Source of the DNA: Psammoneis japonica
Taxonomy: Eukaryota
Length of the DNA: 46,885 nt
NCBI GenBank assembly: GCA_008632985.1
Contig: QPGO01000352.1
Span: forward strand, 1-46,885
Direction of reading: 5' to 3'
Shown here: one piece after another, positions 1-36,507 of the stretch
Position numbering within the stretch: the stretch's first letter is position 1
Layout: each line of letters begins with the position of its first letter
Program-made: the position numbers and the translations under genes
The notes under the pieces: model-generated
Databases searched by the model: none
What the model saw: only the letters and a program-made list of their open reading frames with translations
What the model was told of the DNA's origin: nothing

Positions 1-2145
1 GGTGTGGCTACCGTCGTCAACGGAACGAGACACCATGGTGGGTCGGCAGTTCTACGGAGGACCTGGTGTTGAAATCACGCAGGTAAATTCAATGCCATCG
101 TGCGCAGAATCATGGAGACCACAATGGCACCTGTTCAACGTTTTGGGAACATGCCTGTTCTGCAGATGGAAACTGTTCTTTCAATCACTTGCCTCATTGT
201 CAGCTCTGTCGCAAAGCACATGTGAGCAACCATTTTAGCACGTCCGAGGATCCTTCTGACGTCGCCGACAATTCACGGGAAGAAGGAACACCAGTGGATG
301 GCCCAGTTGCAATCAACGTTCCTCCTGTTTCTAGCACATGTCCACACAATGCTTGTGCACCCTGGAATGTGCTCGACACTGCGTTTCGTTTTCTGGCTCC
401 GGCTGACCACCCCTGTTCACATGGCCAATGCGAAGGTGCACCGAAACCTCCCACTGGCAGGGAAGTGACTGTCTTCAACCCGTTGGCACATGACATCCAA
501 TCCACTCAAGACTCAGCCACAGATCCATCCACATCGACTGATTCTTCTCGTCGCAGATGCAAACGTCAACATGTGGCCGCCCCAAGACAATGGTTGGCCT
601 CCATCAAACTCACTGTTCCCTGGTTGCAGCAAGCGATCGTGTTTGCGCATCACAACATGAGAACACATCCGCCGGGCACCCCAAGTGCCAAGTGCTTTTG
701 GACGAAAGCCAACCTCACGGCCTGTCTTCGCACTTGTGCCGTCATCCAACACCACATCGACACAGTGTGTGCAGCTGCAAAATGCAATCTGCCTTGCCCA
801 ACACATCCAGCACCTTGGCTCAATCCCAAAGCACTTTCACGTTGTCATCATGCACCAATGCACACCATTGGTCTGGGCAATGTTGGGGGTGATTTCTAAA
901 TGATGTCCAAATTGTTCTCTTGATTTGAACTTCAGGCAACCTTTGGAAAGCAAGCAAACAAATGCTTGCGGTCCATCCAGTCCCTCCGATCAACCAAACA
1001 TTTTGCGGCTCATCCACTGTCCACCAGCAAGTGGGGCACAGGTGCCTGGGTCAGTGAAAACCACTTCTTTTGGGCAAGGACAGTAAAATTTGTGGTTGCG
1101 CTGCCTGCGCTCCACCATCGCCAGTCAATGAACAATCACTCGGATCATGCAGGTGTGTCACGGATGTTGCTTCGATTCGCTTCTGCCACACAAGCTTGTC
1201 TGAGCCAAGTCATGTCTTCGGAGCACGTTGTTGGGGACCTTCACAAAATGGTTTTGATGTGTTTGGATGCAATGGTCGAGATGGACATGAGGTTGATGAA
1301 AGCACCCTCAGATGAGACAGACAACGATGCCGTAGAAGGCACTGGTGAAGTTCGGAAGAAAAAGAAAAAAAGGCGAACTTTGTGAAATCTGTTTCACTTG
1401 GAATGCTGGGAGTCGCGGAATCCCACCAACATGATGGACCGGTCATTTTGCATTGGGAGGGTGACGATTCTGGAGAAAGTGGTGTGCAAACTGTGAGGCC
1501 AGAGGTTGGCATCAAACGCAGCAATTTGGGCTGGCAAAAAAATCGCTTTGCGTCACATTCACCAACAGGCAACCATTTCTTGGCTTTTAGAACGTGACAG
1601 TGAGAAAGGTTCATCGAAGAACAGACGTCTAGATGGCATCTTCAAAATCTGCAGCAACTGGGACACATTGTTGGAGGCAAGACAGCAATGCCTTCCCTTT
1701 GCTGGCCTTGTGTTGTCCGACTGCACTGTGTGGTTGTTGTTTCGACCAGTGGGTGAAAAAAGGAGCTGCTCGCTCCTCTGCAACTGCAGTTGCTTTAGAA
1801 TTTGTGGATGAGGAAGGTGAAGAAATTTTGGACTTGTGTTGGATGGCGCCAGTTCAAGCAACAGACAGGAGAAAATCATTTGATGCGGCAACAGATCTTT
1901 GCAACAGCTTGGGACATCAGTTTGTGCTGGCATTGCCAAGGGTGGAAGATGATGGTGAAACGTTCGTAAACAGCTTTTGTTGTGTCAGCCATCTGTGGAA
2001 AGAAAGAACCAGAGATGAATGCTTTGTGAAATCGGAACTCAGCTTGGACGTTTTTGACGATTGGCTGACAGCCGGCAAACCATCAACTGCTCTGTCATCC
2101 GTCTCGGTTGACAATCCAGCCTGTGTGGGGGAGACAATGGCATGA
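1..2145 (+). pseudogene. Frameshifted Plavaka/CMC(EnSpm)-like DDE transposase relic
   Basis: Joining frames gives GDHNGTCSTFW..LPHCQLCRK, then CHHAPMHTIGLG (the MHxxxLG motif of CMC-type transposases), WGTGAWVSENHFFWARTVKF, and HQHDGPVILHWEGDDSGE (GP...W...E catalytic Glu region). Multiple frameshifts and stops. Confidence 0.6.
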
Positions 2146-2305
2146 GCAGTGCACGTGCTCCAATGGTGGACAGACCCGTGCAGGAGCAGCGCACATGCTC
2201 TTTTGTTTGAAGACGCGCTGTTGTGGCCGACACGCAGCTAGCTGCGGGGGATGAGAAGGACATGCAAGCTGGGCATCTGCTCTCATTGCATGTTCCTGTT
2301 TCTCT

Positions 2306-4153
2306 TTATGAAGTGGAGCTGTGCAGATTGTCCCTCATTTTGTTTGACATTTTGTTTTTGGCCAAAATGTCCAACATTGCCTCTGGTGGATTAGACAGCA
2401 GTTTGTCAAAATTGAACTCAAATGCAATTTGAATGGGACCATGATCCCAAGTCGACCCGGCCCAATCATTGTCCTCACACAGTTCCTTGGCAATCTCCTC
2501 CATCGTTTTTTCCTCACCATCACATGAAAAGTTCTGGATTGATCCACCAGAAGGCAGCTCTTTGGGGTCACTGGAACCATCAAAGTGACAAAGAAAATTC
2601 GCCTCATCGTGGAAAACAAAAAATGACATTCCTGCAAAATGGACATCGCAGTGGTTGACCCTCCCTTTGCTGATCCAGAAGCAAAACATTTTGCAAAGAA
2701 TGTTCTCAACAAAACGAGTGGTGAAGTGAGTGTCTTTCTTGTCATCACCCCCGGGGTTGTTCAACTGCACAGTGAATGCACCCTGTGTGGTTTGAGCCAA
2801 ACGGAACATGTCCGCATCGTCCATCTTGCCCAGTCCACATTCTTCGGCAATTTTCATGTTGGGGAGGGAATCCTTTTTGCAGTGGCAACAATGCAGCATC
2901 CAAACAGGAAGCTGGCCAATTTCTGCCATGATCGCAATCGAATGATTGAGACACAAGACGTCGCATTGCGGCGAGAATTCAGACAACTGATTCATCAGTT
3001 TCTTGTAAATGGAGACGATGTCTTTGTTTTGTGGCTTGTTTGCATGCTCATTCCAAATGTCACAAATCCACTTTCCCTTTTTGTCATTCCGTTCTTTCCA
3101 TTCAGCCTTGGTTGGCAAGGGTGGTCTCTTGCTGCACGATGCACATCGTAGAGGGATGCCTCTGCAGTGTGCCTCTTTTGTGTGGACCATCATTTTGCAA
3201 ATGAGACATCCCAATCCGCAGGGGTCGCTTGGCGGCTGGAAGGCATTGACAGATAAAAGAACCAACACAACTGCTCCAAAGCAATGAGACTGCACCGGGT
3301 GCACCTCAAAGCAAGTCTGAACAGCGACAATCTGCAGCAACGTAAGTGAGAACTTGCCAATCATTGCGACAATGAAGTGTAGAAAGAGCTGGTGGTGTGA
3401 CGTTGGTTCCATGTTGCAGTCGCCTTTCAATGCATCAATTCCTTTGCATCCCTTGAATCCTGTCAAGTGATCATAGATTGTTGCCGGCCCCAGTCGTTGC
3501 CGGTGCACAGGCAAGTTTTGGCAGGTGCAAATGGCTCGTGTTGTGATGGGCAAGGCAAGTCGAATCCTCTTCTCCGCAGTTTCTACAGAACTGTGGGTGC
3601 AAGCAATGGCAGCATCTCTTGTTTCTCCATCATCTCGGATGTTTGAAACAGACAAAACTGGGGGCATGTCTTTGTTTTGGCCGTTGCACTCATCCGAGTG
3701 GCAATCCGTAATTTTGCCAAATTTGGTTTTCGCCAGACGCAGTGCCTCCACGACATTGCTTGCTGAGGCATCCGGCAACGAACCCGCACAGTCTTGACGT
3801 CGGTTTTTTGTCTCTTCATCGTGCCACAATCTAGATGTAAAAGTGGGATTCAGTGTCTCCGCAATTTCAGACATTGACTCAAAAAAAGACATTGCTTCCT
3901 TGGTCCCTTTCCCAACTCGAGGCCGTGCAACACCATCAGCATGGCCTTCCCTTGTAGTGCTTGTGTTGGTGCAAACGCCAAAATCTGCAAAGTGGTCCTT
4001 TGGTTGACGATGGGTCCCAGCTTTCTTGGGCTTGTTGCTTTTCTTTTTCTGAAAATGCTTTCTCTTGCCAGTTTTCTTGCCAACATTGCCTTTCTTTGTT
4101 TTCTTTCCCTGGTTGCTTTTCGACTCACGTTCATGGCATTTGTCAATCAGCAC
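2306..4153 (-). pseudogene. Large hypermutated gene of unknown function, convergent with the transposase
   Basis: 615-aa frame with a Lys-rich N-terminus and globular-looking segments. Contains CHSDECN..RDAAIACTH and LNHSIAIMAEIGQLPVW..FVENILCK motifs. Almost no Tyr, with excess Cys/His. Confidence 0.55.
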
Positions 4154-4290
4154 GCGCGATCAGCCCCAGTCAATTTGGCAGATTGGGTGTTTGTTTGGAA
4201 AGTGGCTGAGCACCAACATGAAGTCATTGCAATGGTCAGAATCAACATCATGCAAGGACCATTTGATGTCAGTTTCATCCTGTCCAAGCA

Positions 4291-5760
4291 TCAACACCAA
4301 ATCCGGAAGGGCACTTGGTGGTGGGGGATGTCTGCTCTGCTTGCCAAGCAAACCTGCAGTTTCAACTGGAAGACAACATGCAGATGGGTGGCATGCTTTT
4401 GCCTGCGTTCTCCAGACAGTTTCCCCAAATTATAAAGTGCTTTGGCTTTTCCAGAATTGCAACGGAAGCATGCACTGTTCATCTCCTCAAATGCAAAAAC
4501 AACATTGAACATGTTTTTGGCATGCAAGCTCTCTTCTTGTGGCAGGGAATGGGGCAACACTGTTTTCTCCCGCCGAGTCATGCAGTTGCCAGTGAAAGCA
4601 GGACGCAGCATCTGCAAGGGCAGTGCTGCCTCAACAGCGCTTGGATGGCAATCAGATGATTTGTCTCTGCTTCCACTGGGGAAATCAGAATCGGAGAAAT
4701 CACTGGGAAGTGCTGACACAACTGCGCCGTCATGCCAATGTGATGATTGGTCACTCTGACTTGAGAAAACAGAATCAACGCCATTGCTGTTTGTTGATTG
4801 TTCCTCGACGTGATGCACAGAAGCCGAGTCCTCATGGCGTTTTGCTTCTTCTCGCATGTGCTGCTCACTCAGCAAGCAAAGCAACCGGTCTGCTGGTCTT
4901 CACTTGCGAGGAGGTGGAGATCGTCCCAGGGGAGATTCCAGGCTGCATGACCTGCCATGAATGCCTGGGTTTGCGAACACACGATCGACCCCGACACCTT
5001 GATGGCGACCTCAACATTGTTGGAGACCTGTTTTTTGACCTGGAGGGTGACCTGCACCTGGATGGTGACCTGTGCGGTGACCTGTGTCTGCACCGAGGTG
5101 ACAACCTAGACCTTTTGTTGGATGAATCCAGAGACCTTCGATGAGACCATTGCCGTGAACTGGATGGAGACCTTTGGCGTGACCTCTGCCGCGATTGCGA
5201 CCGACCGCGGCAATCCCCACATGGAGAGCAGGGAACAGTGCCACAACATTCCCTGCAACTGCGCCGGCAACTTGAGTGATGGTGACCCATGGATGGTGAC
5301 CGACACTGTCGCAGATGCCTGGGATGAGAATGAGACCTGCGGCAGACCCAGAATGACGAGACCTTGATCGACAAGGAGAGCCACGTGAAGAAGTTCCAGA
5401 GCGACAATGATGGCTGGTCCGATGATGCGATCGAGACCAAGAACTTGACAAAGAGCAAGACCGAGGACTTGACCAAGACCGGGACGGCGATTGACACCTT
5501 CGTCGTTGGTGGGAATTCGACCTCGACCTGCATTGCTGTTTGGACAGTCTGCGTTCCCTGGATCTGTCATTTGGATTTAACCACAACCGACCTGTGGAAC
5601 TTTGATCAGGCGATTCGGATCTTTGACAAATCAAGCGACCCGGCGGATCTCTTGATGGACGCGCACTCCTCCTTCTTCCCTCAGGAGCGCCGGATCTGCT
5701 CCAAGCGGGAGCATCACATTTGCCTTTTCTGTGATGCATGGATGGCTGGAATTTGAGCAA
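4291..5760 (-). pseudogene. Arg/Ser-rich low-complexity coding relic, probably the upstream part of the 2306-4153 gene
   Basis: RSPSRCRSPSRSKNRSP / RSRSNSHQRRRCQSPSRS repeats spread over shifting frames; same strand as the 615-aa frame. Confidence 0.4.
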
Positions 5761-6424
5761 GCAGATGCTGCAATGAAAAACAATGAGAGCAGCACAGCTT
5801 CACAACTCCTTTGTCATGCGCAAGAGAATGTGATCGTGTGATGATGATGCCGCCTTTGTGTGGTCGTGATTGAGAGATGCATGTTGGGTGAGTCAGAACA
5901 TCGGAATCCGGAATTTTGCATGTCATCCCCTCACGCAGCCAACTGGTTGTGGCCGCCTGCAGCGCCACAAACAGAACACCACAAAAATTCTGCATTCATC
6001 ATAGATTTTAATGAGAAAATGGGTCCCTTCTTTTCTGCAACATCGCTGCATTTGCTGCATGTTGCAATGACACAAATGGCGGAAAAGCGTGCATCCATGA
6101 CACAGCCGCTGACACCGCTGTTGTCATCAAACTTTGCTGTTTGTGCAACGCCGTTGTCATTCATCCTTCCATTGCATGTTGTCATTTTTGTCAACTTGTC
6201 AACAAGTGTTGACAACATTGTGACCTTCAGCAAAGGATCATTGCGAGACACCACCAGAACAGAAACTGCAACGCTGCTGCAAGAACAATGCTGAGCTCAC
6301 GGTGCAGTCTGCACATTGTTTCTTTATCTCGCATCTCAGATAATTTGGTGTGTGTGCTGCACTTCGTTGACTCCTTACAATCATCATCAGGCACTGCAAC
6401 GAAATTGGTTGCAGACAAAGTCAG

Positions 6425-7650
6425 CAACTTCCCCGCATCTCTGCGTCTGCTGCTGACAATTGCACAGCTTCTGATGAGTGGGACTGCCAGTCCGTCGCCC
6501 AGTGATGTTCCGCCAATCGGTTTTCAATGATGAGACCTGGAGAACTGGCTGGGGCACCCTCGGTGTGTTGTGCAGTTTGAAGAAAAGAGGACCGGCTGAT
6601 CTGGGTTGTGTTGGCAGACGGCGCAAGCTCATTTTTCCTTGACATTGGCAAGAAGACACATGTTCCAAAGCCACTTGTCGGTGGGTCGTCTCCGTCTTTG
6701 ATGACTCTTCCCTGCATCTCCGTGTCTGCTGCTGAGAATTGCACAGCAACGGACGAGTGGGACTGCCAGTCCGTCGCCCAGCAACATTCCGCTAATCGGT
6801 TTTCAATGATGAGACCTGGAGAACTGGCTGGGGCACCCTCGTTGTGTTGCACAGTTTGAAGAAAAGAGGGCCAGCTGATCTGGGTTGTGTTGGCAGACAG
6901 CGCAAGCTCATTTTTCCTTGACATTGGCAAGAACACATGCACTCCAAAGCCACTTGTCAGTGGGTCGTCTTTGTCTGTTGTGTCTCTTCCCTGCATCTCC
7001 GCGTCTGCTGCTGACAATTGTGCAGCAACGGATGAGTGGGACTGCCAGTCCGTCGCCCAGTGACATTCTGCTGATCGGTTTTCAATGATGAGACCCGGAG
7101 AACTGGCTGGAGCACCCTCGTTGTGTTGTGCAGTTTGAAGAAAAGGGGACCGGCTGATCTGGGTTGTGTTGGCAGACGGTGTGAGCTCTTTTTTCCTTGA
7201 CATTGGCAAGAACACACATGTTCCAAAGCCACTTGTCGGTGGGTTGTCTCCGTCTGTCACATCTCTTCCCTGCATCTCCGCATCTCTGCTGACAATTGTG
7301 CAGCAACGGACAAGTGGGACTGCCAGTCTGTCGCCCGGTGACATTCCGCTAATCGGTTCTCAACAATGAGACCTGGAGAACTGGCTGGGGCACCCTCGTT
7401 GTGTTGTGCAGTTTGAAGAAAAGGGGGCCGGCTGATCTGGGTTGTGTTGGCAGATGGCGCAAGCTCATTTTTCCTTGACATTGGCAAGAACATGTGTGTT
7501 CCAAAGCCACTTGTCGGTGGGTCGTCTCCACATCTGTTGTGTCTCTTCCCTGCATTTCCATGTCTGTCGCCCACCGACAGTCCGCTGATCGGTTTTCAAC
7601 AATGAGACCTGGAGAACTGGCTGGGGCACCCTCGTTGTGTGGTGCAGTTT
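6425..7650. repeat. Tandem repeat, about 279-bp unit, about 4.3 copies
   Basis: GCTGATCTGGGTTGTGTTGGCAGA recurs at 6595, 6874, 7153 and 7431 (spacing 279, 279, 278). Reads as a 93-aa repeat on the minus strand. Confidence 0.95.
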
Positions 7651-10600
7651 GACGCAAATGAGGCAGCAGCAAAGGGAAGCAAGGATTCGCCTGCGATGTC
7701 AGGGGACAATGGAATGAAAGCTCTTGCCAAAGCAGCTGTTGTTGCATCCCAAGAAGAGAAGGAGGAAATCCGGTTGTCACAGGAGGAGAATGACCACAAT
7801 TCCCAGGAAGAAGATGTGGAAGAAGAGGAGGAGGAAATGCGGCTGTCAGAGGAGGAGAAGGAAGCTGTGAATTCTAAGGAAACAGACAATGATGCTTCTC
7901 AGGAGAAGGAAGATGTGGATTCTTTGCCAAAATCATCAAAATCCAAGGAGGGGGACATTCAAAAATTCCTCCCAAGCTCCGGCATTTCATGACTTCAATC
8001 AAACATGACATGTCAAAGCGTGTGTGGGACAATGTCCACTGCACTTGTCCCTTGTTTGCCGTGGTCAACCCAAGCACAGAACCAAAATCACTGGCTAAAT
8101 TGGCAAATTCTGGAGACGCGGGCCGAACAATCGTGGGAAGAAATGCTTTTTGTTGCATCACAACCAGAAGGGGTTGTCATCCGACTTCGGCAAAGAAGGA
8201 ATTAAAAAATCAATGGAAGCTGCAAAGGATTTTCTTCTTCGTGAATTTAATCAAGAAAACAAAGGCGACATTGTCAATTTGTTGAACAACAAACACACTC
8301 ACATTTTGGGAATTTGTGCAGTGCCAAAAAATGAAGAAATCGGCAAACTGGACGCGCATCTTGTCGCTGCATTGTTGTGTCGGTGCATTGAATTGGTGCC
8401 AGCAACAATTGTTGACTGTGTTCGAGTCGACAGAGGAGCCGAAGTCCACAACCATGGGTTGTGCCCATTCCTGATCAGCCTGGCTCAATCCATCGGCTGC
8501 ACGGTTGTTGGCACTTGGGACACAATGCTGCATTGTCAAGTCAAGCTCAAACAATGCTGCTGTGAAACTTTGGGTTTCGAGGACATCACAGAGGAAATGA
8601 ATGAGGAGCCCTCTTGGGAAAGAGCAAGACACCATTGGAATTGGAGTGATTTGATTGAAGAGGATGGAGACAACACTCGGGCACTGATGGTGAAACGCAG
8701 AGTCACCACATGTTGTGCAAAAATCACCTTGCCCATCTCTCACACAGACAATGATTTCCAATGCAATGCAAAACATTGGCGGGATCGTGTTGGGTTCTGG
8801 AGCAGCAAGAAGAGACCCACCGATCAACACCAAGATTTGGTGGATCAAGAGAAAGACCTCATCTGCAAATCATCAGTGGTGATGGTTGGCAATGCAACAC
8901 TGGATTCTTTTAAAGATTCCTGGCAAAAGCACATGGATGGACGCCAATGGTTTGACATTGGAAAGTGCATTTGCGAATCCTGCGAATGTTGTGCGGGTGC
9001 AAGTGACGCCAACCAAGTTAAGTCACATTTCAAGACAACGGCTTTGTTTGCCGCAAGCGTCAATTTCTCCTGCCAAACGAGTGAATTGGCAAATGATGAA
9101 ACATGGAAAAGAGCAGCGTTTCGATCGAGAACTTCCGAGCCAACTCAAAGAGCGAAATGTGTGAGGGGCAAGTTTGACGCAACTGCGGAGTCGGGAACTG
9201 ACAACGGGAAGCATGTTCTCAACCCCAAGCATTGCCAACAGAGTCGGAGCGATTCAGATGAAGACATGGAAATGGAAATGCCTTCAGGTGATGATGGAGC
9301 CACATGTCAACTTCTTGAAAGAATCCATTTGAAGTGCAACACGTGCAACATGGTGTTTCCCATTGATTGCAACCAGGAAGATCAAGGTGGACTGTCACCA
9401 GCAGCAACTTTGTTTTCAGCGCTTGCGGGACCTTGCTGTGATCATGCAATGTGTGTTCCGGGCAAGCACCCCATTTGCACTGCACAAAGCAAAATTGCAG
9501 AGTGCGAGCTGCTGGTTGGTGCTGCACAAGAAGACAGAGAAACTCTGAAGGACCTGGAGAAACGCCAAGTGCGGTTGAACAAAAAGGATTTCTTTCTGCA
9601 ACCTTTGCGACACATTGCAATTTGGTGCAAAGAAGCGGAACAACTGCATTGGTGCCAGATCAATCGGTCATTCCAACAATGTCGTTTTGCAGAGCTGGCG
9701 AAGGAGGCGATGCTTGACCAAAAATTCTCTGCCAGGGGAAACAAGAGAGAAAAGAAGGAACCGAAACCACAAGAGGGAGATGGTGACCCAGAGGAAGAGG
9801 AGTCTGAATCGGAGCCAGAAGATCAAGGTCTCCTTGTGTCACGAAGAAAAGTGTTGTCTGCCAGGGACAAGAAATGTCAAGATCTACGTCATGAGGCGAG
9901 GGTGCACTGTGAGGATGCCAAAGAATTGGCATGGCTGCATGGTTTTGAGTGGGTCGATCGGGCCACACGGCAGGATGAAAGTGAGGTGCCAGGTGATGCT
10001 GTTGAGCATGAAGGGCCAGTTTTGTGTGGGTGGTTCGAAGATCTCAAGCACAGCAGAACATTTGCTGAAGACTGTTTTGGAGCGACCAATGACAAGGACA
10101 TTGGAGGAGCGAAGATGAACCTTGTTCGAGACACCATTGAGGAAGCCAAAGAGAAGCCTGACACAAGAGTGACTCTCAACGCTGGACAAAAGAGGCAAAT
10201 TGGAAAAGTGAGACGGCTGACAGAGAAGGAGCTGGTGAAGGAGGGGCTTGCAGCCGATGATGATTTTGAAGGTCCGGAGGGAACGCCAGCATTCGTGGGG
10301 GTTGGCACAAGGAAGAAACCGCACCATTGCACCATGGAGTGGGCAAGAGCCAATTTTCAGCAGCGATGTCCCGGAGTGCACAAGGCCATGTGTGATTGGA
10401 AACCAGGGAAGAAATGGTGCAGACTGCCGGAGGGTGACGTGTCAGACAAAAGCGGGCTGGAATTTCCCAGCTCGGGACCCCCAGTCAAACATCAACAAGG
10501 GGAGAAAGACACGTGCATGTTTTTGAGCCTGGCTGGTGTCCCAAATTACATTGGAGATGAAAGGATGGAGCGATGTGTTGTGAGTTGCATGGATCATTCT

Positions 10601-11040
10601 TGCAGGTCAGAGAACACCAACAACAAACAGTTGGAGTTCGCCATTGGCATGTTGTTGGGACAAAAGCAGAAGCTTTGTCCTCCACTGGCTACATCAATGA
10701 AGTGGCACGCATGCAAGAAGCGTCAGAAAATGGCAGCTGGCAAGAAGGGATTCTTCGATTTGACCACCCACATTGCCGATGACATCGTTCTTTGTCGGTT
10801 GACAAACAATCATTGCATTGCTTTGCATGGTGGTTGGATCTTTGACTCCAATCATGAATTCGCTCTTCCGGCAAAAGACATTCAGTGGTTGAATTGGTGT
10901 TCAGGGAATGAAACATTTGAAGCAGATGCACTGGCAGAAGATCCAAAATCAGCAGCGGAGGAAGCAGTTTTTTTTTGAAATGCCGAAGGCTGTCCAAACA
11001 AGGTTGCGCAAACGCAAGCGGCAAGACAATGCAATCACAG
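7639..11040 (+). pseudogene. Large multidomain relic: acidic N-terminus, GNAT-like domain, C-terminal papain-like (Cys/His/Asp-Asn) domain
   Basis: 942-aa frame 8150-10978 plus frameshifted flanks. TIVDCVRVDRG..NHGLCPFLISLAQ..MLHCQVKLKQCCCETLGF reads as GNAT motifs A/B once Tyr is restored (DYV; YYETLGF). QQGEKDTCMFLSLA..NHCIALHGGWIFDSN resembles a papain-fold catalytic set. Confidence 0.5.
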
Positions 11041-11399
11041 GTCAACTCTTCTCACTTGGCATGGTTGTGGCCAACGATTTCCAGGCATGTGGGCGTTTGC
11101 GAGTCACCAATGTTTTGCCAACAAGCCTGGCCTTTTCTGCAGCACGCAACAGTTGGCACATTTGCGGCAGTGTGTGAGGCTTCCCACCAAGGACATTCTT
11201 CACATGAGCCCCTTAGTTTGAAAACACATGCCCACGGGTTGATCTGCAAAATGACTGAGCAATTTGCAGATGCCATTCATTTCCTCGTCCATGTGCGGGC
11301 ACACATTTAACCAACAGCGGCATCCATCAACAGTGCATTGGCTCACAAGAGGCTTTGTCCACTGATCGTGCTTTTGGACTTTCACGTTGTCCAATGGGG

Positions 11400-12413
11400 T
11401 GGCGCAAAGCAGGGGAAGGAAACGATTCTTGGTCGCTGGCGTCAGATCACTTCATTTCACAGGAGCAAACACAAGCAAGCCGCTGCCCCACGCATCTTGC
11501 TCTGTCACTTTGAGTTTCTTCAGGACAGTTTGTCGACGCTCGGCTGTGAGATGGAACTGTGAAGTTGCAGTCTTCCATGTCATGATGATTTCTTTACAAT
11601 CCATGCCCATGGAGGTGCCACGATTGGGAAGAGATGATGTCATGCTGCAAAACCGATTGTGATGATCGGGTTTTGCCAAAACCATGCCAACTTGCAGCCA
11701 TTTGCCCATGGCAACACAGGCAACAGCATCAACAAAATGCTTGGGTTTTGCCAGGCATGACAGCATGCATCCACTGCATCTGCCCGTCATGATTTTGTCA
11801 ACAACAATCTCAGAGGAATGGCGGTGAGCCAACCGACCGAGAGATTCTAGAAAGTCGTCGCTGAGTGTTGTGTCATTGTTTGCCAGCATCAATTCTAAAA
11901 ACAATGCAGTGATTGGCACCTTCTTTACAACCTGATCAAACAACGGAGATGAATGTGGTTGAGACAATCCTTTTTGCACTCACTGAGCTCCGCGGAGCTC
12001 AGAGTGCCTGGCATGTGATGCGGCAGCGCAATGGTGTGATTGCGTGTAAAAGAGTTAAACACGTCGTCCAGATGCATTGCCGTGCTCGGACCATGTTCTG
12101 CACTGAACGTGCTGGCAGTCCAACAGTGGACAAGCCCATGATCACCGGCCACATGACTTCCACATGCAATCAAACATCCGTCGTTGTGCCCTCCCGTCAC
12201 AGAATTAATTGCAAACAAATTTGCATCGGAGCCGTTTGGCATCACTTTGTGCAGCAGCAATTCACCATCAAAGTGACGAAAAACAACTTCTTCCAACTGC
12301 TTGTGATGGCCGATGTCCATGGAAGAATTCATCAAATCTTCGCCATTGCGTTTTAAGCCACGCGGGCTAACGGCAACCGAATTGCACCCCCAATTGTTTG
12401 CCATGTCGTCCAT
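11400..12413 (-). pseudogene. Class-III (PLP-dependent) aminotransferase-fold relic
   Basis: Motifs in the expected order: NGSDANLFAI (cf. SGSEANE), ITALFLE, FLESLGRLAHRH.EIVVDKIMTGRCSG (cf. LIxDEVxTGxGRxG), VAMGKW (PLP lysine), AWGSGLLVF (cf. RGxGL), KNRFLP. One frameshift near 11927 and a stop near 11452. Confidence 0.7.
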
Positions 12414-13301
12414 GGCATCGTTTGGGATTGTTCAATGCGCAAAAGAGCAAGATGCAAGATTCAAGAAGAGTCCCAAAAGATGATTGGATGGAAAAAAGGG
12501 AAGGGATTGCAGCTCTGTTGATGGACAAAAGGAGGCTTGCGCAGCGCAGAGGATTTGTGAAAATGAGGTGGAGCAGCACATGTGCTCTCAACCACCAAAA
12601 GCACAAAACACGTGCATTCTGCTGCACTGCGCATTTGCAGACAAGCCCTGCACGCAGGGCCCCACACATGTTCCACACGCTGAAAGAGCAGCACGCACGT
12701 GCGCATGTCCTCCCACCCAATCGTGTGATTGCACAATGCATTTCATTCAACAACGTAGATGAAGCGAGCACTTTAAAAAAGAACACACATGAAAACTCAA
12801 ACTTCAATTGTGGAAAATCACACATTCAAAAGTGAGCCAATGAGAACCCAATTTTTGTTTGAGGAAAATTTTGTTTCAAATGGGAGGAAAGAACAATCTT
12901 CTTAACACAACAGGTCGACATGGTTGTCAATGTTCATTTCAGAACATTGATGCTTGATTGAAACAATGAAAAACACAGAAAAGAACAAAACTGAACACAA
13001 TTCAAAAACCGTGCAATGAGAACATGCAACCGTGACTTTGCAATTGTGTCAAACAGATTTGGCTCGTCCCGGACCATCCACAAGCACAAAAAGTGATCAG
13101 AAGTCGAAAACACAATGACAAATTCATTTCATCAGACACAGGTGTCGGTCGTCAGCCTTGATCTTACAAACACATCGAGGGCAGACACTTCAACAGAGGG
13201 AAACACAACCCCATCAAGGACAGATGTTGCAACAGCGGGAAACACAGGTGGGTGCATTTGAAATCACAGTGTGCGTTTGGAAGCTGACATTGTGATCTGA
13301 C

Positions 13302-16300
13302 ATGCAGTGGGAAGCTTCCACAACAAATCCAGGGGAAAAAATGACAGCACCCAATCGTCCATTGGATTGTCCAAGAGACTTTTTCCATCCGACGACAGGG
13401 GCCAACCCCGCAAGACCAGAGGATGCTGCTCTTTTGTGGTCATGCCGAAAGGCACGTCCACAACTTGGTGAGGTGGAGACGGTGCTGCCCAATGGCAAGA
13501 AGATGCTTCAAGAGGTGGCACAAATCCGGTCGTCCCTTCGAGGACACGTCATGACTCAATGCCTGGAGGGCTGTTGGAAAAATGCAATGGACAAGGGAGT
13601 GGCAATGCCATCAACAAACACCAATCCCGTCACAACAGAAGACTTCAAGAACATTCTGGCAAGCATGGACAACACAACCGAGAATCAGCAGCTCGTGCAT
13701 CAAGTTTTCCACGCCTTTCATCGCAACAGAGGATGGCTGGCTGCTGCCATTGACAAATGGTTTGCCGAAAAGCTCACGCTGCACGCCACGGACGCTTCCA
13801 GCAAACCTCGCAAAATGTGTCGCGATGACAGAGGCAGGTTTGCTGTGGTGGCACGCCAGACGCGTTCCAGCCCCAGGTGGGAGCTCGCAGCACTGACGTG
13901 TGACACAAATAATTTTTGTCATCCGTCGCATGTTTTGCACATGGAAATGGCATTTTAATTGCCGTGGCACGCAGAATTCTACGGGCCCAATGTCACATGG
14001 ATTCCCACCTGCGTCTGGAACGCGTCGTGTGACATTTAAAAAAAATTGTCCAGACTCGCTGTTTTGCGAAGCCCCAGACGTTTTGTGCAATGAATTTGCA
14101 GAAACAACAATGCGCCAGCCACATTCTTGAATGTCTGAAGAATGTAACTGGCTGAGTAAAAAATGATGTGCTTCAATCATGGGCGAGTTTGTGCGTTTGC
14201 AAAATTGCCTCATTTTTTGTTGGCGATCATTGGCATTTTAATTGCCGCATGATTTTACTGCGGAGCTCGCACGCAGAATTCTACGGGCCCAATGTCACAC
14301 GGATTCCCACCCACGTCTGGAACGCGTCGCCAAGCCAAATGTCAAATGATCAAAACATTTGTGGAGTTCATGCTGCAAAAAGCAGGCTGGTGTGTGGCAA
14401 ATGCAATGCACAAGAGCAACAAGGAGAATGTTGGAGGCAAAACACATGTGGCCGTTCCCGCTGCAACCAATGCAGAAACAACAACCAAAGCAAAGTTTTA
14501 CGTCGTGTCGATGAAACCAGTGGCGGCAAGTCAGTCGCACATTGTTTGTTTGTCCTTTTGTTGACAAACTTGTTTGGTTTGCAACTTCGTTCCCATTTCC
14601 AGTCCTTGACAGCAGGAGGAGAACACCGAAGCATCAAAACAAGTTGCTCAGGGAGCACCCAGCAAAGACATTGACATTGCATCCCTTGTGGACCTTGCGA
14701 AAACAGCAAGCATGTTGTCAGAACAAATGGGAGTTCCGCTGTCCAAGGAAGATTTGCTCCAGTCGATTCGTGGCTGCATGACAGTCACCAGCTCATCCCA
14801 AATGGTCAACGAAGAGATTGTGCTTGATCCGCAACATGAGTCCGAAACTCAGGTGTCAACACTGACCATGGACACCATGCTAAATTGCCCATCTGAACCT
14901 GCAGCAAAGCGGAAGTTAACCGAGAAGGAGAAGGAGGCAGAGCCAATTCCTTGTTGGGAATGCAATGATGAACTAGAACCCCTCACCATGGATTTGGATG
15001 TCATCAATGGTTGGAATTCCAGTGATGAAGAGTTGGCAGAAATGGCGTCACAGGTGACCACATGATTTGGTGGTCCAATTGCTGTGGTGTTGGATGGCTC
15101 TAACCAACTTCCGCTTTGATGCCTTGCTTGGCTTGTCAGACACAGTTGTCTGGGTCCCCTTGTTGCAGGATGGAACAAGAGCCCGGGAATGCTCCAGCGG
15201 CAAGAAAAATGTGTCATGTCATGCGGCTGAATTGCATGTCGCTCACGCCACCATTCTTCATGCAAAAGGTTGATGAGATGGACGAGCCAACTGGTGCAAA
15301 AGAAAAGGTGAGAGCATTGTCGGTGCTCCAGCTGTCGATTTGGACTGTTGCTCTAACAGCTCTTTGGCGTCATTGGGTTGCTGGATGCCACACCAAACCA
15401 TCCCAGACAGTTGAAACACTGGAGCGAGCACAAAAAAAACAAGCAAGTGAACAGAGTTCTGAGGCAGAGCGCGACACATGGATTGGATCAACCAATCACA
15501 CTGCTCCTGCTGTTCTTCATGACCAGGCAAATGAGGTGGTTGACAGTGGCAACAATGAAAAGGTGAGAGCATTGTCGGTGCTCCAGTTGCAAATGAAACA
15601 ATTGCTCCAACCACTTTGGGGCGTCATTGCTGGATGCCAGACTCAACCATCCCCAGTTGCTGAAATGCCAGAGAGAGCACCACAAAAGACGGCAAGATCA
15701 CATTGTCTTGCAGCCAATTGTGCAATTCATTGGACACGTCTCACACAGCCGTTGTTGTTTGCAATGAGAAAGGTTGAAGAGACAATGGCAAATGGCGCAA
15801 ATGAAAAGGTGAGAGCATTGTTGGTGCTCCGGATTGCCATTGAGAAGTTGATCTGATGGCATTCAATGTGTGTCATGATGGCACTTCTTTTGCAGACTCA
15901 ACCAGCCAACCACTCTAAACCGTTGTTTAATCCATTGTGAAATGAAGCGGTGAGAATGCATGATGAAGTCGTGCGGATTGTGCACAGTGTTTTGGAAACA
16001 CCTCTCACTTTGTTGTTTGTTTGCAACAAAGACAAAGACAGCAAATGACAAACGCGTGCACAAAACTGCAACACTTGTTGTGGCTCAAGCGGATCAAACA
16101 ACTGCTTGCAATTCGCAGGCACAGAGCAAACGTCATTGTTGATTTGGCATGCCTGTTGTTGTGTTGTCTTGTTCACGCACGCAAACCAATTGTGTTTGTT
16201 TGTTTGTGTTTGCAGTGCAAGTGCGAGGAGGCTCACTTGTTCCATGCCTTGGTCCATCAAGATGACGGAAAATGTTTTGCTCAAGCGCGCTTCAAAACCA

Positions 16301-16596
16301 ACCCACTGTTCCCTGCAAAGTGCTGTGGCGAAAAGTGTGATGTTGTTTTTGGATCAAGCAGTTACAAGGTTGGACAAAGAAAGGCAGTTTGGGTTTGCAT
16401 GAACGCATTGAATGGTTCTTGCAATTGCAGGTTTGCATTGTGTGTGCAGTGTTGTCAAAAGACCATGTCAGCTGCATCTGACAAACGGCGCCGAAGGACA
16501 ACCCGAAACAACAGACATGTTCCAGCCGCACGTGAACCAAATCGTGCACAAAAACGACATTTGCGCGATTTTTGCGCGGTCCCTGCTTGCGATTGA
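13302..16596 (+). pseudogene. Intron-rich gene with C-terminal Cys-rich zinc-finger-like domain, interrupted by a MITE
   Basis: Removing the MITE and one TSD restores ..VVARQAKCQMIKTF... Predicted introns include 14526-14612, 15054-15139, 15200-15268, 15443-15526, 15563-15640, 15692-15772 and 15809-15895. The last exon (from about 16216) encodes KCCGEKC..VWVCMNA..CNCRFALCVQC. Confidence 0.6.
13859..14328. mobile_element. MITE, TIR GACGCGTTCCAGnnnnAGGTGGGA, 4-bp TSD GCCA; carries an extra internal copy of its right end (about 13948-14026)
   Basis: TIRs at both ends; GCCA at 13855-13858 and 14329-14332; excision restores the surrounding reading frame; homologous to 35834-36229 in inverted orientation. 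Confidence 0.9.
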
Positions 16597-16907
16597 ACTT
16601 TCACCACCAAAAGCATGGATTCACACAAATGCAAATGTGTTGCAACACTGACAAGACTCGTGTGAGTGTTGCAACATCATTGTCATTGTGCCATCTGTGT
16701 TTTTCATTGCGCTTTAAAAGGTTCGCAACACAACGGATGATTTTCGGCGAAAACATTGCCGTCATTTGGATGTCACCCAAACACATCTTTCTACGATGCT
16801 GCTTGGCAGGTTTTCCACCTGCGAAAAAATCTCAGCACAAATCTGATGACGTGCGGCCAGCGTTGAGTCCACTGAGGAAGTTTGTGGTGCATGTCCCATG
16901 AGGATTT

Positions 16908-17357
16908 GTGCAACACACAGCTGCCAACAAGAGTCAATGCATCACGGCGACGTGTTGCAGCCTTTAAATGTCACAAAGGGCGTGACAAAAATGACCTTTT
17001 GTCTGCATGCATGCTGCACTGTGAATTCACAGCGGAGTGGTTCAATGCGCAACCATTGGGCAGGAGGCCAGGGGTTCGAAACCCTGAGTGGGAGTTGTCT
17101 GCAGCAACGTTGATCACTGTCGAACGCGCAAAACTCTGTGCAGTTCTGTGTGTTCCTTCGCACGCACCCACACTGTTCCGCCAAAACCGTGCAGTGTCAG
17201 CACACGTTAGTAAAGAGCCGCATGGACGCGTGACACATGGGGAGGAGTGCAACACACAGCTGCCAACAAGAGCCAATGTGTCACGGCGACGTGTTGCAGC
17301 CTTTAAATGTCACAAAGGGCGTGACAAAAATGACCTTTTGTCTGCATGCATGCTGCA
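16908..17357. repeat. Two 111-bp direct repeats (16908-17018, 17247-17357) with an internal TGTCAC..GTGACA hairpin
   Basis: Near-identical copies; a third, partial copy lies at 36508-36589. Confidence 0.9.
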
Positions 17358-17669
17358 TTTGAACACCCCTCAAAAAACCATTTAAATGTTCACACTCCAG
17401 AAGCCCACAAAAGTCAATCCGTCTGAGCATTTTTGTCAAAATGCTTTGTGCACTAAAATGTGCACAAATTATGTTCAAAATCCGATTGTCGTTTTGTGCG
17501 TCACCTGGGACTGGAACACGTCAACAACAACAAATGACAAGGCAATGCAACACATGCACACGATGCAACAATGTGCAATTGCTTGGGATTGATTTCACCG
17601 GCACAGTCAGGGTTCGGCGGATGTGTTTGTTGACAGAGTCAATCGAAGCGCAGCTTCGCAAATGTGACA

Positions 17670-18090
17670 GTTGTTCAGAGCATCAGCAAATTTGTTCAGA
17701 GTTGTGATCTGTTCAAATGGAGAGGCTGTCGTCATCCGTTGTTTGTTCAGAGCTTTGCTCTAGTTAAATGTCCGTTGTTTGTTCAGAGCTTTGCTCTGAT
17801 TAAATGGAGATTCCACGGGCATCCAAACATTGTTCAGAGTCGTGCTCTGATTGAATGGACACAATCACAGCAGCGCTCTGAACATCAGCACAATGCTCCA
17901 ATTTGCAAATTGTGCTCTGAATGCAATGCTCCAAGCAAAATTCTGTGGCTCCGAACAACCAAATTTACTCTGATTGTGCTCTGCGTGGGCATTGTCACCT
18001 TAATTGACTCTCATTTGCTCTGAATGTCCCACATTGTGTCGGGATGATTTAAACAAAGCGTTGCTCAGAATAAAATGTTCGGAGCACAAA
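17670..18090. repeat. Array of TGTTCAGAGC / GCTCTGAACA-like motifs in both orientations
   Basis: TGTTCAGAG near 17672, 17693, 17745, 17780 and 17831. Reverse-orientation GCTCTGA near 17793, 17844, 17875, 17914 and 18017. Confidence 0.75.
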
Positions 18091-19296
18091 TGAAGAGAAT
18101 CTCATTTGCAGTGACAAGCAGATCATTTGAGCATCGCGCATCGCGCGTCCCCCCAAGTCCACAAAACAACATGGCGCTTGGCGCTTGTCCTTCACAATTT
18201 CTTCTTTCTTGCGAAGCATCATGCCTTTCACCGGCATGCGATCTGTTGCTGGACACATTGGAAGGCTCGTCGTTTCCATTTCGTGGCTAAAATCGGCAGC
18301 AGCAACTGCTCACAGTGACTCTTGCAACACTGAGCCACCCCAGTTCATGATTCTGGGGGTGTCAGGAACATTGCAGGATGGATTTCCTCTCCGAGATCGG
18401 CTTGATTTCCAGTTGGGCGAATCAGACGAGTCTAGAGCTGTCTTCATTGGAAAAGGACTCATTTGAGGGCAAGCACATCATGCACACACCTCAACATGTC
18501 CAGGCACGAAGCATTTTTCGTGCCTTGCCCACTCTGACTCTGGCGCCTGCTTCCACTCTATTCTTCTCCAAGGCACAAAGCCTGCCTTGACATCCAAGAG
18601 GAAGGGTGGAGAGAGTGCGTGCCAGAACCAGACAAGCCGAGTGCCAACCATGTCGTCCTTCCTTCAGGATGCCACGAACATGCCAACATTCATTGGTTTT
18701 ATGCCGTTGACACCCGCCAGGTGCGCAGACAAAAATGAGCTTCAGCAAACATGATCACGGATCTTCACACAGAGATGCTTCAGTTTCCCTCCAACCTCTA
18801 ACTCACCAAATTTTGAAAGGTTTTGTCCATTTTGAACAACGAGCCTCGATTTTTGAGCATGTCACCAGACACCGGTCTGGTTGATCTCACTTCTGCGGAG
18901 ACGAGCGAAGTGTTGAGACACTTTGCCAGGTACAAAAACCAGCGTCAAGGCACAACCGACACTGCCTCCGTTGCAATGCCGCCAGTGACGGGTGTGTGGT
19001 GTCATCCTGATCATGTGCCAAGCCCTCTGGCACATGCAAAGGATGATGAAACGCAGGTTGCAAGTTTCGAAACAAGCATTGTGCTCTGGGCTCATGCTGG
19101 CAGCAAGGATTCGCACAAAGACAAATGCAGTCATTCCAATGATGCCACTTGCGCTGGACACGATTCCGATGAACTAAGTGTGCCATCTGACAATGATTGG
19201 GAACATGTGCACCGTGCAGTGAGAAGAGCGGAAAATGGCATTCGGTCACAACAGACACTCCTGGCAAATGGACCACCTTTTCATTGCTCCGAAACA

Positions 19297-19840
19297 ACAA
19301 GACTGGGGGTCGGGCCATCTGCAGCAAGAGTCAACAAACCATTCACAGCAGCTGAGCTCAAATCCATTCTGAAGGCCACGAAGAATTGGCAAAGTGTGGA
19401 AAGGAATGAATCAACCACCCATTTCAGTTGAGGTGACGTTGCAGCAATTGCTGAGTGTGGATCTTCCGGTGTCGCATTCGCCGCTCTTTGCTGTGTCCAC
19501 AACAACGGGACTTTTTGGACAACAAGGCCCCGAATCAAATCGCAAGCATGCTGGCCAATGTCTGAGCCGTCTCGCGCCACCAGTCCGGGAGCGCTGCAAT
19601 CCCAGAGACAGATTTCATGCTCAAAGTAAACTGAGGTGTTCTTCGGGCAGATGACTGAGTCGTCGTGCACTGCTGCCACAATTGAACGACAAGCAGGAGG
19701 AGTGGGAAAAGCTCCAGGCCCACTTTGTTCTCATGTTCCTGACACAGTGACGATTTCTACAAGACTGGGGGTCTGGCCATCTGCGGCAAGAGTCAACAAA
19801 CCATTCACAGCTGCCGAGCTCAAGTCCATTCTAAATGCCA
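19297..19840. repeat. About 80-bp direct repeat (19297-19378, 19759-19840)
   Basis: ACAAGACTGGGGGTC..AGAGTCAACAAACCATTCACAGC..GAGCTCAA.TCCATTCT present twice. Confidence 0.9.
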
Positions 19841-20499
19841 TGGAGAGACGAAAGTGCACCTGACTCCAATGTCGAGAGCGACGAGACGAACGAGAACGAG
19901 AATGACACAGACAATGAAGAAGAAGAGGGCGGCGACATGTAAAAGAGTGCTGGTGTAGCTGGTTTGGAAGCCGTCGCCTTGGCAGCATCAAAGTTGAAAT
20001 GGTCTGTCGTCAAGACGGATGATGACGACGACGCTGGTGCAGGTCAGATGGAAAGCTTGGGTCAAACAGACCCCTTCAGCACCGATGCACCTCAAAGACA
20101 GGGAGAAGGAGGAACTGGTGCTGCACCGCCAGCGTGAGTTTTCTCATGCGATGCATTTGACTTGGCATGATTGAATTGAAAAGTTTTCCCACTGACTTGT
20201 CGTGCACTCACTGTTCTCAATGCCTTGCCTTGGCGCACAAGCAGTCGCTCAGCAAATGGCGGTTCAGGCTGCAGCAAACACAGCCACTGCAGAAGCTACA
20301 ACAGCTGCGGCTGCAGCCGGAGGGGCGACGGCCACTGGCTCAGGGGTTGGAACAGGTGCCATCGTGGCGTCTGTGGTTGCTGCCACAGCTGTTGTTGCCG
20401 CCCCCTGTCACATCTGGGGTGGTTCTGACTGAAAACAGAAAGAGTGCAGCGGCCACTGCCGCTCCGGAAGGCTTACAGTGCGACGTAATCGAACGCATC

Positions 20500-21595: not shown

Positions 21596-21757
21596 TGCAA
21601 GGTCTAACAAGACAAAGACTTCAGTGACAACAAAATTGTGAGCAAAAGACCGAGGTAACGAGGGTCGCTTTCAGCGAAGCCCGTCACAACGGCTTCCGTC
21701 ACATCTGGCAGGTTCATTGACACCACACATCAGAAAAACAAGGTGCGAGACACTGCA
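21596..21757 (-). repeat. 3' LTR (162 bp)
   Basis: TGCAAGG...CACTGCA; aligns without gaps to 26774-26935. Confidence 0.95.
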
Positions 21758-21770
21758 CTCTTCCCTTCCA
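21758..21770 (-). other. Polypurine tract
   Basis: Minus strand TGGAAGGGAAGAG immediately before the 3' LTR. Confidence 0.85.
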
Positions 21771-21869
21771 TGATTCGAGTGTCGAGAATCATGCGGAACT
21801 CAAAAAATTTAAATTCCAATGGATGAGGATAGAAGGGAAACCCAAATGTTGGGGAGAAAACCCTCAACC

Positions 21870-24800: not shown

Positions 24801-25306
24801 AAGTCTTGTCCCAAAATTAAATCACACTTGCATGGGGCATCAAAAACTTGAGCCGCAATGCTGTCGACTTGTTTTGACTTGTCAAATTCTGGCAACATCA
24901 AGTCCTTCACAATGACGCATCAGGAGGATTCACATTGTCCGGCCACCGTCTGAAAGCTCAACCGTCCTTCATCGTTCATGGTCGGATTCGCTCCCTTCGG
25001 CAAAACTCAAGAATGAACAAGAGTGTCAGCACCTCCTGAATCCAATGGCACTCGTAACACTCGCTTGCTCTCTTGATTTTGAATGGCACGCGCCGCCATC
25101 AACGTCGTTGGCACCACATTCAGTGGTTCAGGAGTCGCAGTTTTAGGGGTTGGCACAGCGCACTCCAAAACGCCGCCCAATTTTTCTTCATTCACAGCAC
25201 AAGATTCCATCAGGTCTCCCACATTGTCATCAACATTAAAACATGTGTTTTCTTCACAATCACACGAAACATGAAAAGATTGAGCGACACGCTCTGACTC
25301 GGGCAC
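21870..25306 (-). pseudogene. pol: Gypsy pol (protease, RT, RNase H, integrase), frameshifted, with a short RT deletion
   Basis: PLDSGGAD (PR); RWASDFRELNK, TKLDL, YIDDI (RT); YTDSSDYQMGA, TDHKNL (RH); H..GH..C..C, DLIGPW, HDNG, PQANA (IN). The segment between EESKDLC and GLK is missing. Confidence 0.95.
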
Positions 25307-25318
25307 TTCCGTCCCTTG

Positions 25319-26707: not shown

Positions 26708-26773
26708 GTTTGGTCAATTTGTTCGCATTGTTCCTGGTCTCCATCCAGTTCTTTGAATCGACTGCAATTACAG

Positions 26774-26935
26774 TGCAAGGTCCAACGAGATAAAGACTTC
26801 AGTGATGACAAAATTGTGAGCAAAAGACCGAGGTGACGAGGGTCGCTTTCAGCGAAGCCCGTTACAACGGCTTCCGTCATGTCTAACAGGTTCATCAATG
26901 CCATGTGTCAGAAAAATGGGGTGCGAGACACTGCA
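26774..26935 (-). repeat. 5' LTR (162 bp)
   Basis: Matches 21596-21757; followed by TSD TCCCA. Confidence 0.95.
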
Positions 26936-28465: not shown

Positions 28466-28663
28466 ATTACTAATTCCTACGTGCACTTTACGGCAACCGT
28501 AGAAAACGCAAAAAAATGTGGCCACGGTGACGTCTTCGTTGTCGCGAGGTCCGAGCTCAAGAATTAGGGCTACTCTCCAACTCAGCATGCACATTCAAAA
28601 TCACATCATGGAATCATTTCAACCATCAAGATCAAGCAGCGTCTTTGATCGCAACGATTGCAC

Positions 28664-35050: not shown

Positions 35051-35113
35051 AAGGAACCCGGATCCAACCTTTTTTTTGGAAAAAAGGAAAAAAAGGTTGG
35101 ATCCGGGTTCCTT
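35051..35113. repeat. Perfect 26-bp inverted repeat, 11-nt loop
   Basis: AAGGAACCCGGATCCAACCTTTTTTT / AAAAAAAGGTTGGATCCGGGTTCCTT. Confidence 0.95.
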
Positions 35114-36229: not shown

Positions 36230-36507
36230 AGCAAAGCTGGAAGATGACAGTTGGGTGAAGGTTGGGTGCATGAAAAGACATCTTTGGTGTTTTTGTTTGG
36301 ATGCTGCTGACATCCCCCCCAATGAAAAAATGCCAATGACACAATCACAGGAGTTGGTGACATCTCCAGCTTGATTTTGATGGCAAGGAGTTGCTGGGTG
36401 CAGCACCGCAATGTGCAAGAGGATGGCATTCACGCCGCAGGTGCAATGACTGCCCTGTGTGTGCAATTTTCACAACAACACAATTGAGGCACATTGCACT
36501 CCTCCCC

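Follow-up and report, generated by a model that had tools for sequence, protein, structure and literature searches.

Mutation of repeated and foreign DNA in other systems

Fungal repeat-induced point mutation (RIP), a premeiotic, homology-triggered and RID-dependent process, converts C to T in rounds that strike the same strand, and so makes TpA out of CpA. In a stretch of 46,885 nucleotides from the diatom Psammoneis japonica (contig QPGO01000352.1, positions 1 to 46,885 of the forward strand, GenBank assembly GCA_008632985.1; the whole stretch is termed ‘the window’ below), two transposable elements, a large DNA transposon with terminal inverted repeats (TIRs) and a Ty3/gypsy retrotransposon, have undergone a process that resembles RIP in producing dinucleotide-specific transitions confined to repeats. 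Unlike RIP, it changes A to G, destroys TpA, and shows no coordination between strands; the TpA sites that escape it lie mostly in the contexts TYTA and TARA, and this flank rule is the subject of the present study.

The closest described system is that of the rhizarian alga Bigelowiella natans, in which TpA hypermutation of integrated viral DNA is reported to be ongoing, with a rate that depends on the line and is close to 1e-6 per site and generation, and for which an ADAT-type deaminase has been proposed (Mettrop et al., bioRxiv 10.64898/2026.01.13.699255, a 2026 preprint). As described there, the two processes share conversion of TpA to TpG or CpA only, action on both strands, confinement to foreign or repeated DNA, and clusters that are poor in TpA and rich in CpA and TpG; depletion of the viral regions is mild (rho 0.45), whereas values in the diatom are 0.03-0.17. 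The main text of the preprint gives no flank rule (the words ‘context’, ‘trinucleotide’ and ‘diatom’ are absent from it), and a survey of the literature, made mainly on open-access titles and abstracts, found no paper on a diatom TpA process or its flanks.

Three further systems invite comparison. Adenine base editors derived from TadA, reported to act best on TAY and worst on MAR (PMC10879117), resemble the diatom mutator in changing A to G, in their TAY optimum and in disfavouring a purine at +1; unlike it, they are engineered, act on single strands opened by Cas9 and edit non-TA sites substantially, whereas the specificity of the mutator for TpA is about 20-fold or more. No report of a mirror-symmetric effect of positions -2 and +2, as described below for the mutator, was found for such editors in the sources surveyed. 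The amphioxus enzyme BjADAT2/3 is reported to be a naturally occurring ADAT able to deaminate the adenines of DNA, and in that respect is like the enzyme proposed here, but its preferred targets are GAA, TCG and hairpin loops and it deaminates C as well (PMC10354150), while the diatom mutator prefers TAY. DNA polymerase eta (Pol eta) shares with the mutator the A to G changes at TA hotspots, but is described as targeting WA (both TA and AA) with a broader spectrum, about one quarter of its in vitro errors falling at C/G (PMC6423074).

TpA depletion and the flanks of surviving sites

A dinucleotide profile taken per kilobase gives observed/expected (o/e) ratios for TpA of 0.03-0.17 in each kilobase of two blocks, 1-20000 (which holds the present finding) and 34001-42000 (a second repeat block, used in the held-out test), with CpA and TpG in excess. 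In the gene-bearing stretches (about 20-22, 28-34 and 42-46.9 kb) the ratio is 0.41-0.90; the steps between repeats and flanking genes are abrupt, and the host genes are spared. The large DNA transposon occupies positions 113-18113, as a left-truncated copy of an element of about 20 kb.

A first-pass annotation of the window had proposed that 11 of the 12 TpA sites left in 1-2000 stand in TYTA or TARA, and that the trend continues downstream with some exceptions. A recount bears this out: 11/12 in 1-2000 (the sole other site being GCTACC at position 9; binomial p = 3e-6), 16/24 in 2001-6800 (held out; p = 3e-5) and 27/36 in 1-6800 as a whole, or 30/36 under the looser criterion of T at -2 or A at +2. 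The examples that it quoted were all located (CGTAGAG at 3149, TGTAGAA at 3380, TCTAGATGTAAA at 3832/3838, TTCTAC at 53 and 3584), and doubly protected survivors include TCTAAA at 897-898, with others at 1588, 1630, 1796 and 3832. Across all depleted segments of the window, 129 of 183 TpA sites have such flanks, against a background of 26% for CpA (869/3353) and TpG (865/3301) in the same segments and 27% (121/454) for TpA in the undepleted segments; for the held-out depleted segments alone the contrast is 118/171 versus 121/454 (Fisher p = 7e-22). The first 2 kb nevertheless overstate the effect (92% versus about 69% elsewhere), and the limits 1-2000 and 1-6800 are arbitrary, as depletion runs through all of 1-20000 and 34001-42000.

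The same annotation took strand symmetry of the protected context as a sign of discrimination by an enzyme or by DNA shape. One-sided survivors are indeed even (51 TYTA and 54 TARA), but this balance proves nothing by itself, because it is expected of any two-strand rule acting on a palindrome such as TA; what stands of the claim comes from the directional analysis below, in which T at -2 and A at +2 are found to act separately.

Survival relative to ancestral sites

A search of the genome (91.4 Mb in 597 contigs) found at least 13 other copies of the large element, mostly 89-95% identical, and 14 copies were compared; no TA-rich copy was among the matches found. Its ancestral TpA sites (431) were inferred from alignment columns with at least eight copies and no CG, with all-CA and all-TG columns, which are undetectable, conditioned out; a tandem array (6400-7700) was excluded from all column counts, as were the copies on contigs C32, C413 and C282, which were too divergent or fragmentary. 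An independent family for the rate matrix was provided by the Ty3/gypsy retrotransposon at 21596-26935 (minus strand; gag, reverse transcriptase (RT), RNase H and integrase domains, with long terminal repeats (LTRs) at 21596-21757 and 26774-26935), of which 20 other close copies were examined. One of these, L025, retains 176 TpA sites (o/e 0.60) compared with 30-65 in the other copies, and was used solely to polarise the direction of change. Sequences L038-L046 (72-78% identity) were excluded, the full-length stretches L149-L159 served only for flanks in the held-out test, and a second gypsy fit dropped the first 400 bases, keeping 147 of 175 sites.

Normalised in this way, survival depends strongly on the flanks. 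In the window copy of the large element (1-6800), TpA was kept at 5/107 unprotected, 18/54 one-sided and 5/8 two-sided sites; over all copies, survival was 0.114, 0.454 and 0.853 for sites with none, one and both protective half-sites (276, 140 and 15 sites). In the gypsy family 37 of the 176 L025 sites are TYTA or TARA, and the window copy keeps 19 of these 37 against 11 of 135 others (p = 3e-8). Equal survival across hexamers had been named beforehand as the outcome that would speak against the claim; pooled survival instead ranged, over the 74 of 120 hexamer classes with at least four sites, from 0.00 (for example AGTACC and GATACC) to 0.82-0.91 (TCTAAA, TTTAAA and TCTAGA), and the claim stands. 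In 78.5 kb of other depleted DNA, deduplicated and masked for similarity to both families (although it may contain some unaligned left arm of the large element), 230 of 358 survivors are TYTA or TARA, versus 473 of 2034 undepleted TpA sites, and survivor enrichment falls from 4.2 to 0.2 over six bins of predicted rate.

The flank bias of the survivors is thus almost certainly mutational rather than ancestral. That TYTA and TARA were simply common in the ancestral elements, or that stop codons were retained by selection (TARA contains TAA and TAG), has a negligible chance of being correct: the idea is refuted by the per-site normalisation of the gypsy family, and the even balance of the two contexts and the persistence of the rule in the 78.5 kb of other repeats also oppose it.

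Two simpler rules were tried and rejected. A pure YTAR rule is incomplete, since T at -2 or A at +2 lifts survival within each class: with rising T-2/A+2 content, survival is 0.32, 0.56 and 0.85 for YTAR, 0.06, 0.30 and 0.62 for mixed sites, and 0.03, 0.05 and 0.26 for RTAY (the last class holding five sites). A hairpin or palindrome rule fails because palindromic hexamers are among both the slowest sites (TCTAGA) and the fastest (CATATG).

Separately, the L025/L149 locus (contig C196) is a gypsy copy that is mostly spared, with TpA o/e of 0.45-0.82 per kilobase, though the locus ends in TpA-poorer DNA; this copy is either young or not yet targeted. Gypsy copies in general keep more of their TpA in the LTR and the initial 400 bases (window 21596-22000) than in the interior, which suggests weaker targeting at the edges of the element.

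Direction, purity and independence of the changes

Across the 20 other gypsy copies, the 176 TpA sites of L025 are read as CA 1398 times, TG 1049, TA 827, CG 5 and other states 35 times (3314 in all), so that states besides TA, CA and TG make up 40/3314. The rate of A>G relative to L025 is 0.371 after T, compared with 0.013 after G, 0.018 after A and 0.049 after C (the last raised by decay of CpG in the copy used as reference), and A:T>G:C transitions are thus almost confined to TpA. This agrees with the contention of the first-pass annotation that general GC-biased drift is not responsible; drift is excluded by these rates and by the indifference of CpG decay to the flanks (figures below).

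The same figures bear on an error-prone polymerase of the Y family (Pol eta-like) that would fill gaps in methylated repeats and mutate WA motifs. Six profile matches at five loci show that the genome encodes such polymerases, ordinary in appearance, and AA is the second-best 5′ context among the rare changes outside TpA. However, the TA:AA ratio is about 21:1 (0.371 versus 0.018) and transversions make up about 1% of changes at TpA (A>C 0.0015, A>T 0.0038), where Pol eta is reported to favour WA with a broad spectrum (PMC6423074). Gap filling should moreover leave same-strand clusters, and none were found: the strand choice of neighbouring sites is uncorrelated (r of -0.01 to 0.06, within about 1.5 null standard deviations, in six distance bins and both families). 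The polymerase is accordingly improbable, even with the correlated loss of TpA and CpG per copy (described below) in its favour. The lack of strand coordination argues equally against processive single-strand tracts, and processive single-strand deamination was rejected for that reason.

Both strands are struck, the TG share per copy being 0.40-0.55 in the large element and 0.37-0.49 in the gypsy family. Pairwise concordance of CA and TG between copies of the large element is 0.54-0.71, and both products are common at single sites; the changes therefore arose after insertion, copy by copy. This independence weighs on a further alternative, ADAR-like editing of element RNA followed by reverse transcription. 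The genome holds two A_deamin loci, and ADAR is credited with a 5′ U preference in work cited in the Bigelowiella preprint (bioRxiv 10.64898/2026.01.13.699255), but no bias relative to the element strand is left once the +1 base has been fitted (strand term -0.07 to 0.01), and the rate matrix is the same for a DNA transposon with TIRs, in which no RT domain was found and whose copies mutated independently. RNA editing is consequently a most remote prospect.

Decay of CpG, which might also yield CA and TG, is a separate process and was dismissed as their source: 3 columns contain both TA and CG, against 233 with TA only and 798 with CG only, and CpG survival is the same in protected and other flanks (0.83 versus 0.85). 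C>T at CpA is low, and TpA is destroyed and not created. Survival of TA and of CG per copy of the large element is correlated (rho 0.77, n = 14), which may reflect either age or a shared dependence on silenced chromatin.

The rate matrix

The contribution of each flanking base was estimated with a competing-risk model in which every TA site has two rates, one for each adenine, and coefficients are expressed relative to C. For the large element the values for A, G and T were 0.24, 0.34 and 1.10 at +1; 0.37, 0.69 and 0.75 at +2; 1.78, 1.23 and 0.72 at -1; and 1.65, 1.26 and 0.50 at -2. The corresponding gypsy values were 0.29, 0.36 and 0.86; 0.39, 0.62 and 0.69; 1.32, 0.86 and 0.75; and 1.70, 1.52 and 0.67. 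The 18 log-coefficients from -3 to +3 correlate between the families with r = 0.968, and purines at -1 and -2 on the strand of the changed adenine raise the rate.

Condensed further, A at +2 multiplies the rate by 0.47 (0.37-0.55) in the large element and 0.45 in the gypsy family, and T at -2 by 0.40 (0.31-0.47) and 0.44; their ratio is 0.86 (0.72-1.02) and 0.93, equal within error. At the adjacent position, a purine at +1 gives a factor of 0.27 in both families while its mirror image, a pyrimidine at -1, gives 0.55 and 0.70; this term is asymmetric, because R at +1 is about twice as strong as Y at -1. The rule therefore has a strand-biased component, a preference of about 4-fold for TAY over TAR, and a dyad-symmetric one, whereby T at -2 and A at +2 each roughly halve the rate. 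The original proposal that T at -2 or A at +2 protects the site holds in that both terms are real, but is incomplete, as no other single term is as large as that of the base 3′ of the adenine (R versus Y, about 0.27).

The possibility that the rule lies on the 3′ side alone, with the T-2 term an artefact of the model, was tried and rejected: the corresponding simulations returned T-2 factors of 0.85-1.08 in 8/8 runs, and a model-free count shows that a TARA on the other strand makes hits on the partner adenine less frequent (0.29 versus 0.46, p = 8e-11; 202 versus 371 half-sites), which is opposite to what competition alone predicts. Rare A>G changes outside TpA (a ‘leak’) provide a separate view of the same terms. 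They fall in NAY at 165/2368 columns and in NAR at 56/3038; A at +2 lowers them (2.5% versus 4.3-5.3%) and T at -2 has no effect (4.2% versus 3.4-5.0%). The 3′ term thus travels with the adenine, while the T-2 term is restricted to the TA dyad.

As a separate observation in both families, the adenine of CGTA is seldom struck (0.16-0.20); with CC or CT on the partner side the figure is 0.31-0.44. The mutator may be slowed at CGTA/TACG by the neighbouring CpG, which is perhaps methylated.

Proposed mechanism and alternatives

In the model that we favour, a host mutator would act on transposons once they have inserted, turning TpA into TpG or CpA at single sites and on either strand, and its slowness at TYTA and TARA would account for their survival. 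By the fitted rates, a TYTA half-site slows both adenines of the TA/TA dyad (that of the bottom strand has RA on its 3′ side, and that of the top strand has T at -2), for which reason a one-sided context shields the whole site. The chemistry would be deamination of adenine to hypoxanthine, which replication reads as G, and the agent a zinc deaminase of the TadA/ADAT fold, acting distributively on silenced repeats in duplex form. In this view the +1 term represents a base-flipping pocket that accepts T-A-Y, in agreement with the preference for a 5′ T and a 3′ Y reported for TadA-derived editors (PMC10879117), and the mirror-symmetric term at -2 and +2 the ease of opening or binding the duplex TpA step.

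The mutational signature is directly observed; that it was left by a distributive adenine deaminase on duplex DNA of silenced repeats is, on our reckoning of its chemistry, enzyme and targeting, somewhat probable. The chances are about even that the -2/+2 term is read from duplex rather than single-stranded DNA. The most specific form of the proposal, a natural repeat-targeted duplex adenine editor in diatoms that treats the TA/TA dyad as a single target (for instance as a dimer, or by requiring the whole TpA step to be open) and combines a TadA-like T-A-Y pocket with mirror-symmetric readout of the flanks, is put forward tentatively, as a conjecture that we would not yet back over its negation.

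A number of points weigh against this model. Sequence cannot separate deamination of A from a lesion of the opposite T, nor a lesion from context-dependent repair. Exact symmetry at -2 and +2 fits worse than the free model (negative log-likelihood 4415 versus 4372 for the large element and 2451 versus 2426 for the gypsy family), a cost of 25-43 log-likelihood units that makes the symmetry approximate; the hit rate of an adenine on its own strand after Y is not visibly lowered by A at +2 (0.50 versus 0.50); the site bootstraps were small (40-60 resamples, with 40 for the A+2, T-2, R+1 and Y-1 figures); and the ancestral TpA sites of the large element are inferred, so that some columns with CA and TG only may be fully decayed CpG. 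TACG, the natural tRNA context of TadA, is not favoured (own-strand hit 0.44-0.58, versus 0.59-0.63 for TACC), and the leak after A (4.9%) at least equals that after C (4.2%), an order that differs from that of the base editors. Profile searches of the genome brought out no special candidate enzyme: there are five MafB19-deam matches and two A_deamin loci, all ordinary in appearance, and by provisional functional label the searches gave a TadA-like, an ADAT2-like and a dCMP-deaminase-like sequence and a guanine-deaminase fusion besides the A_deamin loci. Lastly, the one natural ADAT2 known to edit DNA, that of amphioxus, is reported to prefer GAA, TCG and hairpin loops rather than TAY (PMC10354150).

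The two A_deamin loci (L165 and L166, on contigs C40 and C79; ADAT1/ADAR-type) are separate. The fusion protein, also on contig C79 (L163, positions 319-1791, minus strand), is a frame of 491 residues in which a domain resembling guanine deaminases is fused with a dioxygenase of the DIOX_N/2OG-Fe(II) type; fungal thymine dioxygenase is among the close structural matches of the latter. The protein probably serves nucleobase catabolism, and was set aside as a candidate mutator on the grounds that its best deaminase-domain matches are guanine and guanosine deaminases.

Two alternatives place the cause elsewhere. In the first, the modified base would be thymine: an oxidase or methyltransferase would leave a miscoding adduct (5-formyluracil and O4-alkyl-T are candidates) on the T of RTA, with T>C as the outcome. 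The resulting signature is formally identical, and an enzyme that binds duplex DNA and flips bases would explain both the symmetric -2/+2 term and the absent strand coordination; the TAY optimum, for its part, fits adenine editors, and the sole thymine-dioxygenase-like match seen is the guanine-deaminase fusion, which looks like an enzyme of free-base metabolism. The lack of a Tet_JBP match in the genome counts weakly here, as the control matched nowhere either. On balance a thymine lesion is unlikely. In the second alternative, lesions would occur at all TpA sites of silenced DNA, and the I:T or G:T mismatches would be better repaired, or less often fixed, in TYTA and TARA. Repair acting on duplex DNA would yield what is observed, a dyad-symmetric term that appears at TpA alone, but a separate TpA-specific source of lesions would still be needed, the +1/+2 rule also appears in the rare non-TpA events, and CpG decay is unaffected by the flanks; we regard this explanation, too, as having a rather small chance.

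Adenine methylation by MT-A70 enzymes targets ApT, and in the window ApT (o/e about 0.6-1.2) is not depleted as TpA is. A profile search of the genome with MT-A70 (PF05063) gave no match, in a search where the control matched nowhere either.

Other features of the window

On the left, where it is truncated, the large element adjoins a fragment of a different dispersed repeat (1-110), which has a separate set of matches. The right end of the element is sharp, with unrelated flanks, and carries a TIR (18100-18113, minus strand) whose 14 bases are the same as those at the left end of another copy, L142; both ends start with CACTG. The TIRs of CMC/CACTA transposons start with CACTA or CACTG, and the terminus suggests an element of that kind. 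No Pfam match over the cut-off, no recognisable transposase and no relatives were found for the scanned open reading frames of the window copy, which lacks the left arm and is mutated heavily enough to lower sensitivity, and its proteins could not be named.

Within the element lie a tandem array (6428-7566; 4.1 copies of a 279-bp unit) and two insertions absent from the other copies, at 13859-14327 and 16514-17521. A short repeat family with inverted and direct copies (13859-14346, 35816-36229 and 37742-37870) has one copy in the element. Arg/Ser-rich, low-complexity frames occur at 4865-5800, and a frame of 959 codons with no homologue found at 8099-10978; long open frames are expected here because TAA and TAG have been erased.

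The undepleted control includes host genes at 42200-46885 (TpA o/e 0.50-0.67, with no flank bias) and a UTP4-like gene at 30791-32911 (minus strand), identified by protein matches and normal in TpA; among the 120 of its 231 matches that are listed, all that name an organism are diatoms. Long host frames at 43150-46764 (minus strand), with normal TpA, include a match to DHR-2 lobe A, the domain of DOCK-type guanine nucleotide exchange factors. At the edge of a gene-bearing block, 28001-30000 contains 285 N bases, which mark either an assembly gap or a withheld stretch.

Implications

The flank rule is real and reproducible, and is a property of the mutator, which represents a variant of a recently described process; that process has one published precedent, the preprint of 2026, which concerns an alga unrelated to diatoms. 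What is tested here is the replicated matrix, its division into a strand-biased and a nearly symmetric term, the leak outside TpA and the absence of strand coordination.

The six-position matrix offers a direct test of any enzyme: a candidate must be slow at TCTAGA and TTTAAA, fast at RRTAYY-like sites, leave no clustering by strand and show a weak NAY leak, whether it is a deaminase, a polymerase or a repair mutant. Applied to the Bigelowiella mutations, the matrix would reveal whether a single ancient system is common to both algae, and it also offers a way of dating and aligning diatom transposons. If the proposed mechanism is true, a natural duplex adenine editor would form the adenine counterpart, as yet with no characterised enzyme, of RIP and of the duplex cytosine deaminases, and would be relevant both to genome defence and to base-editing tools.

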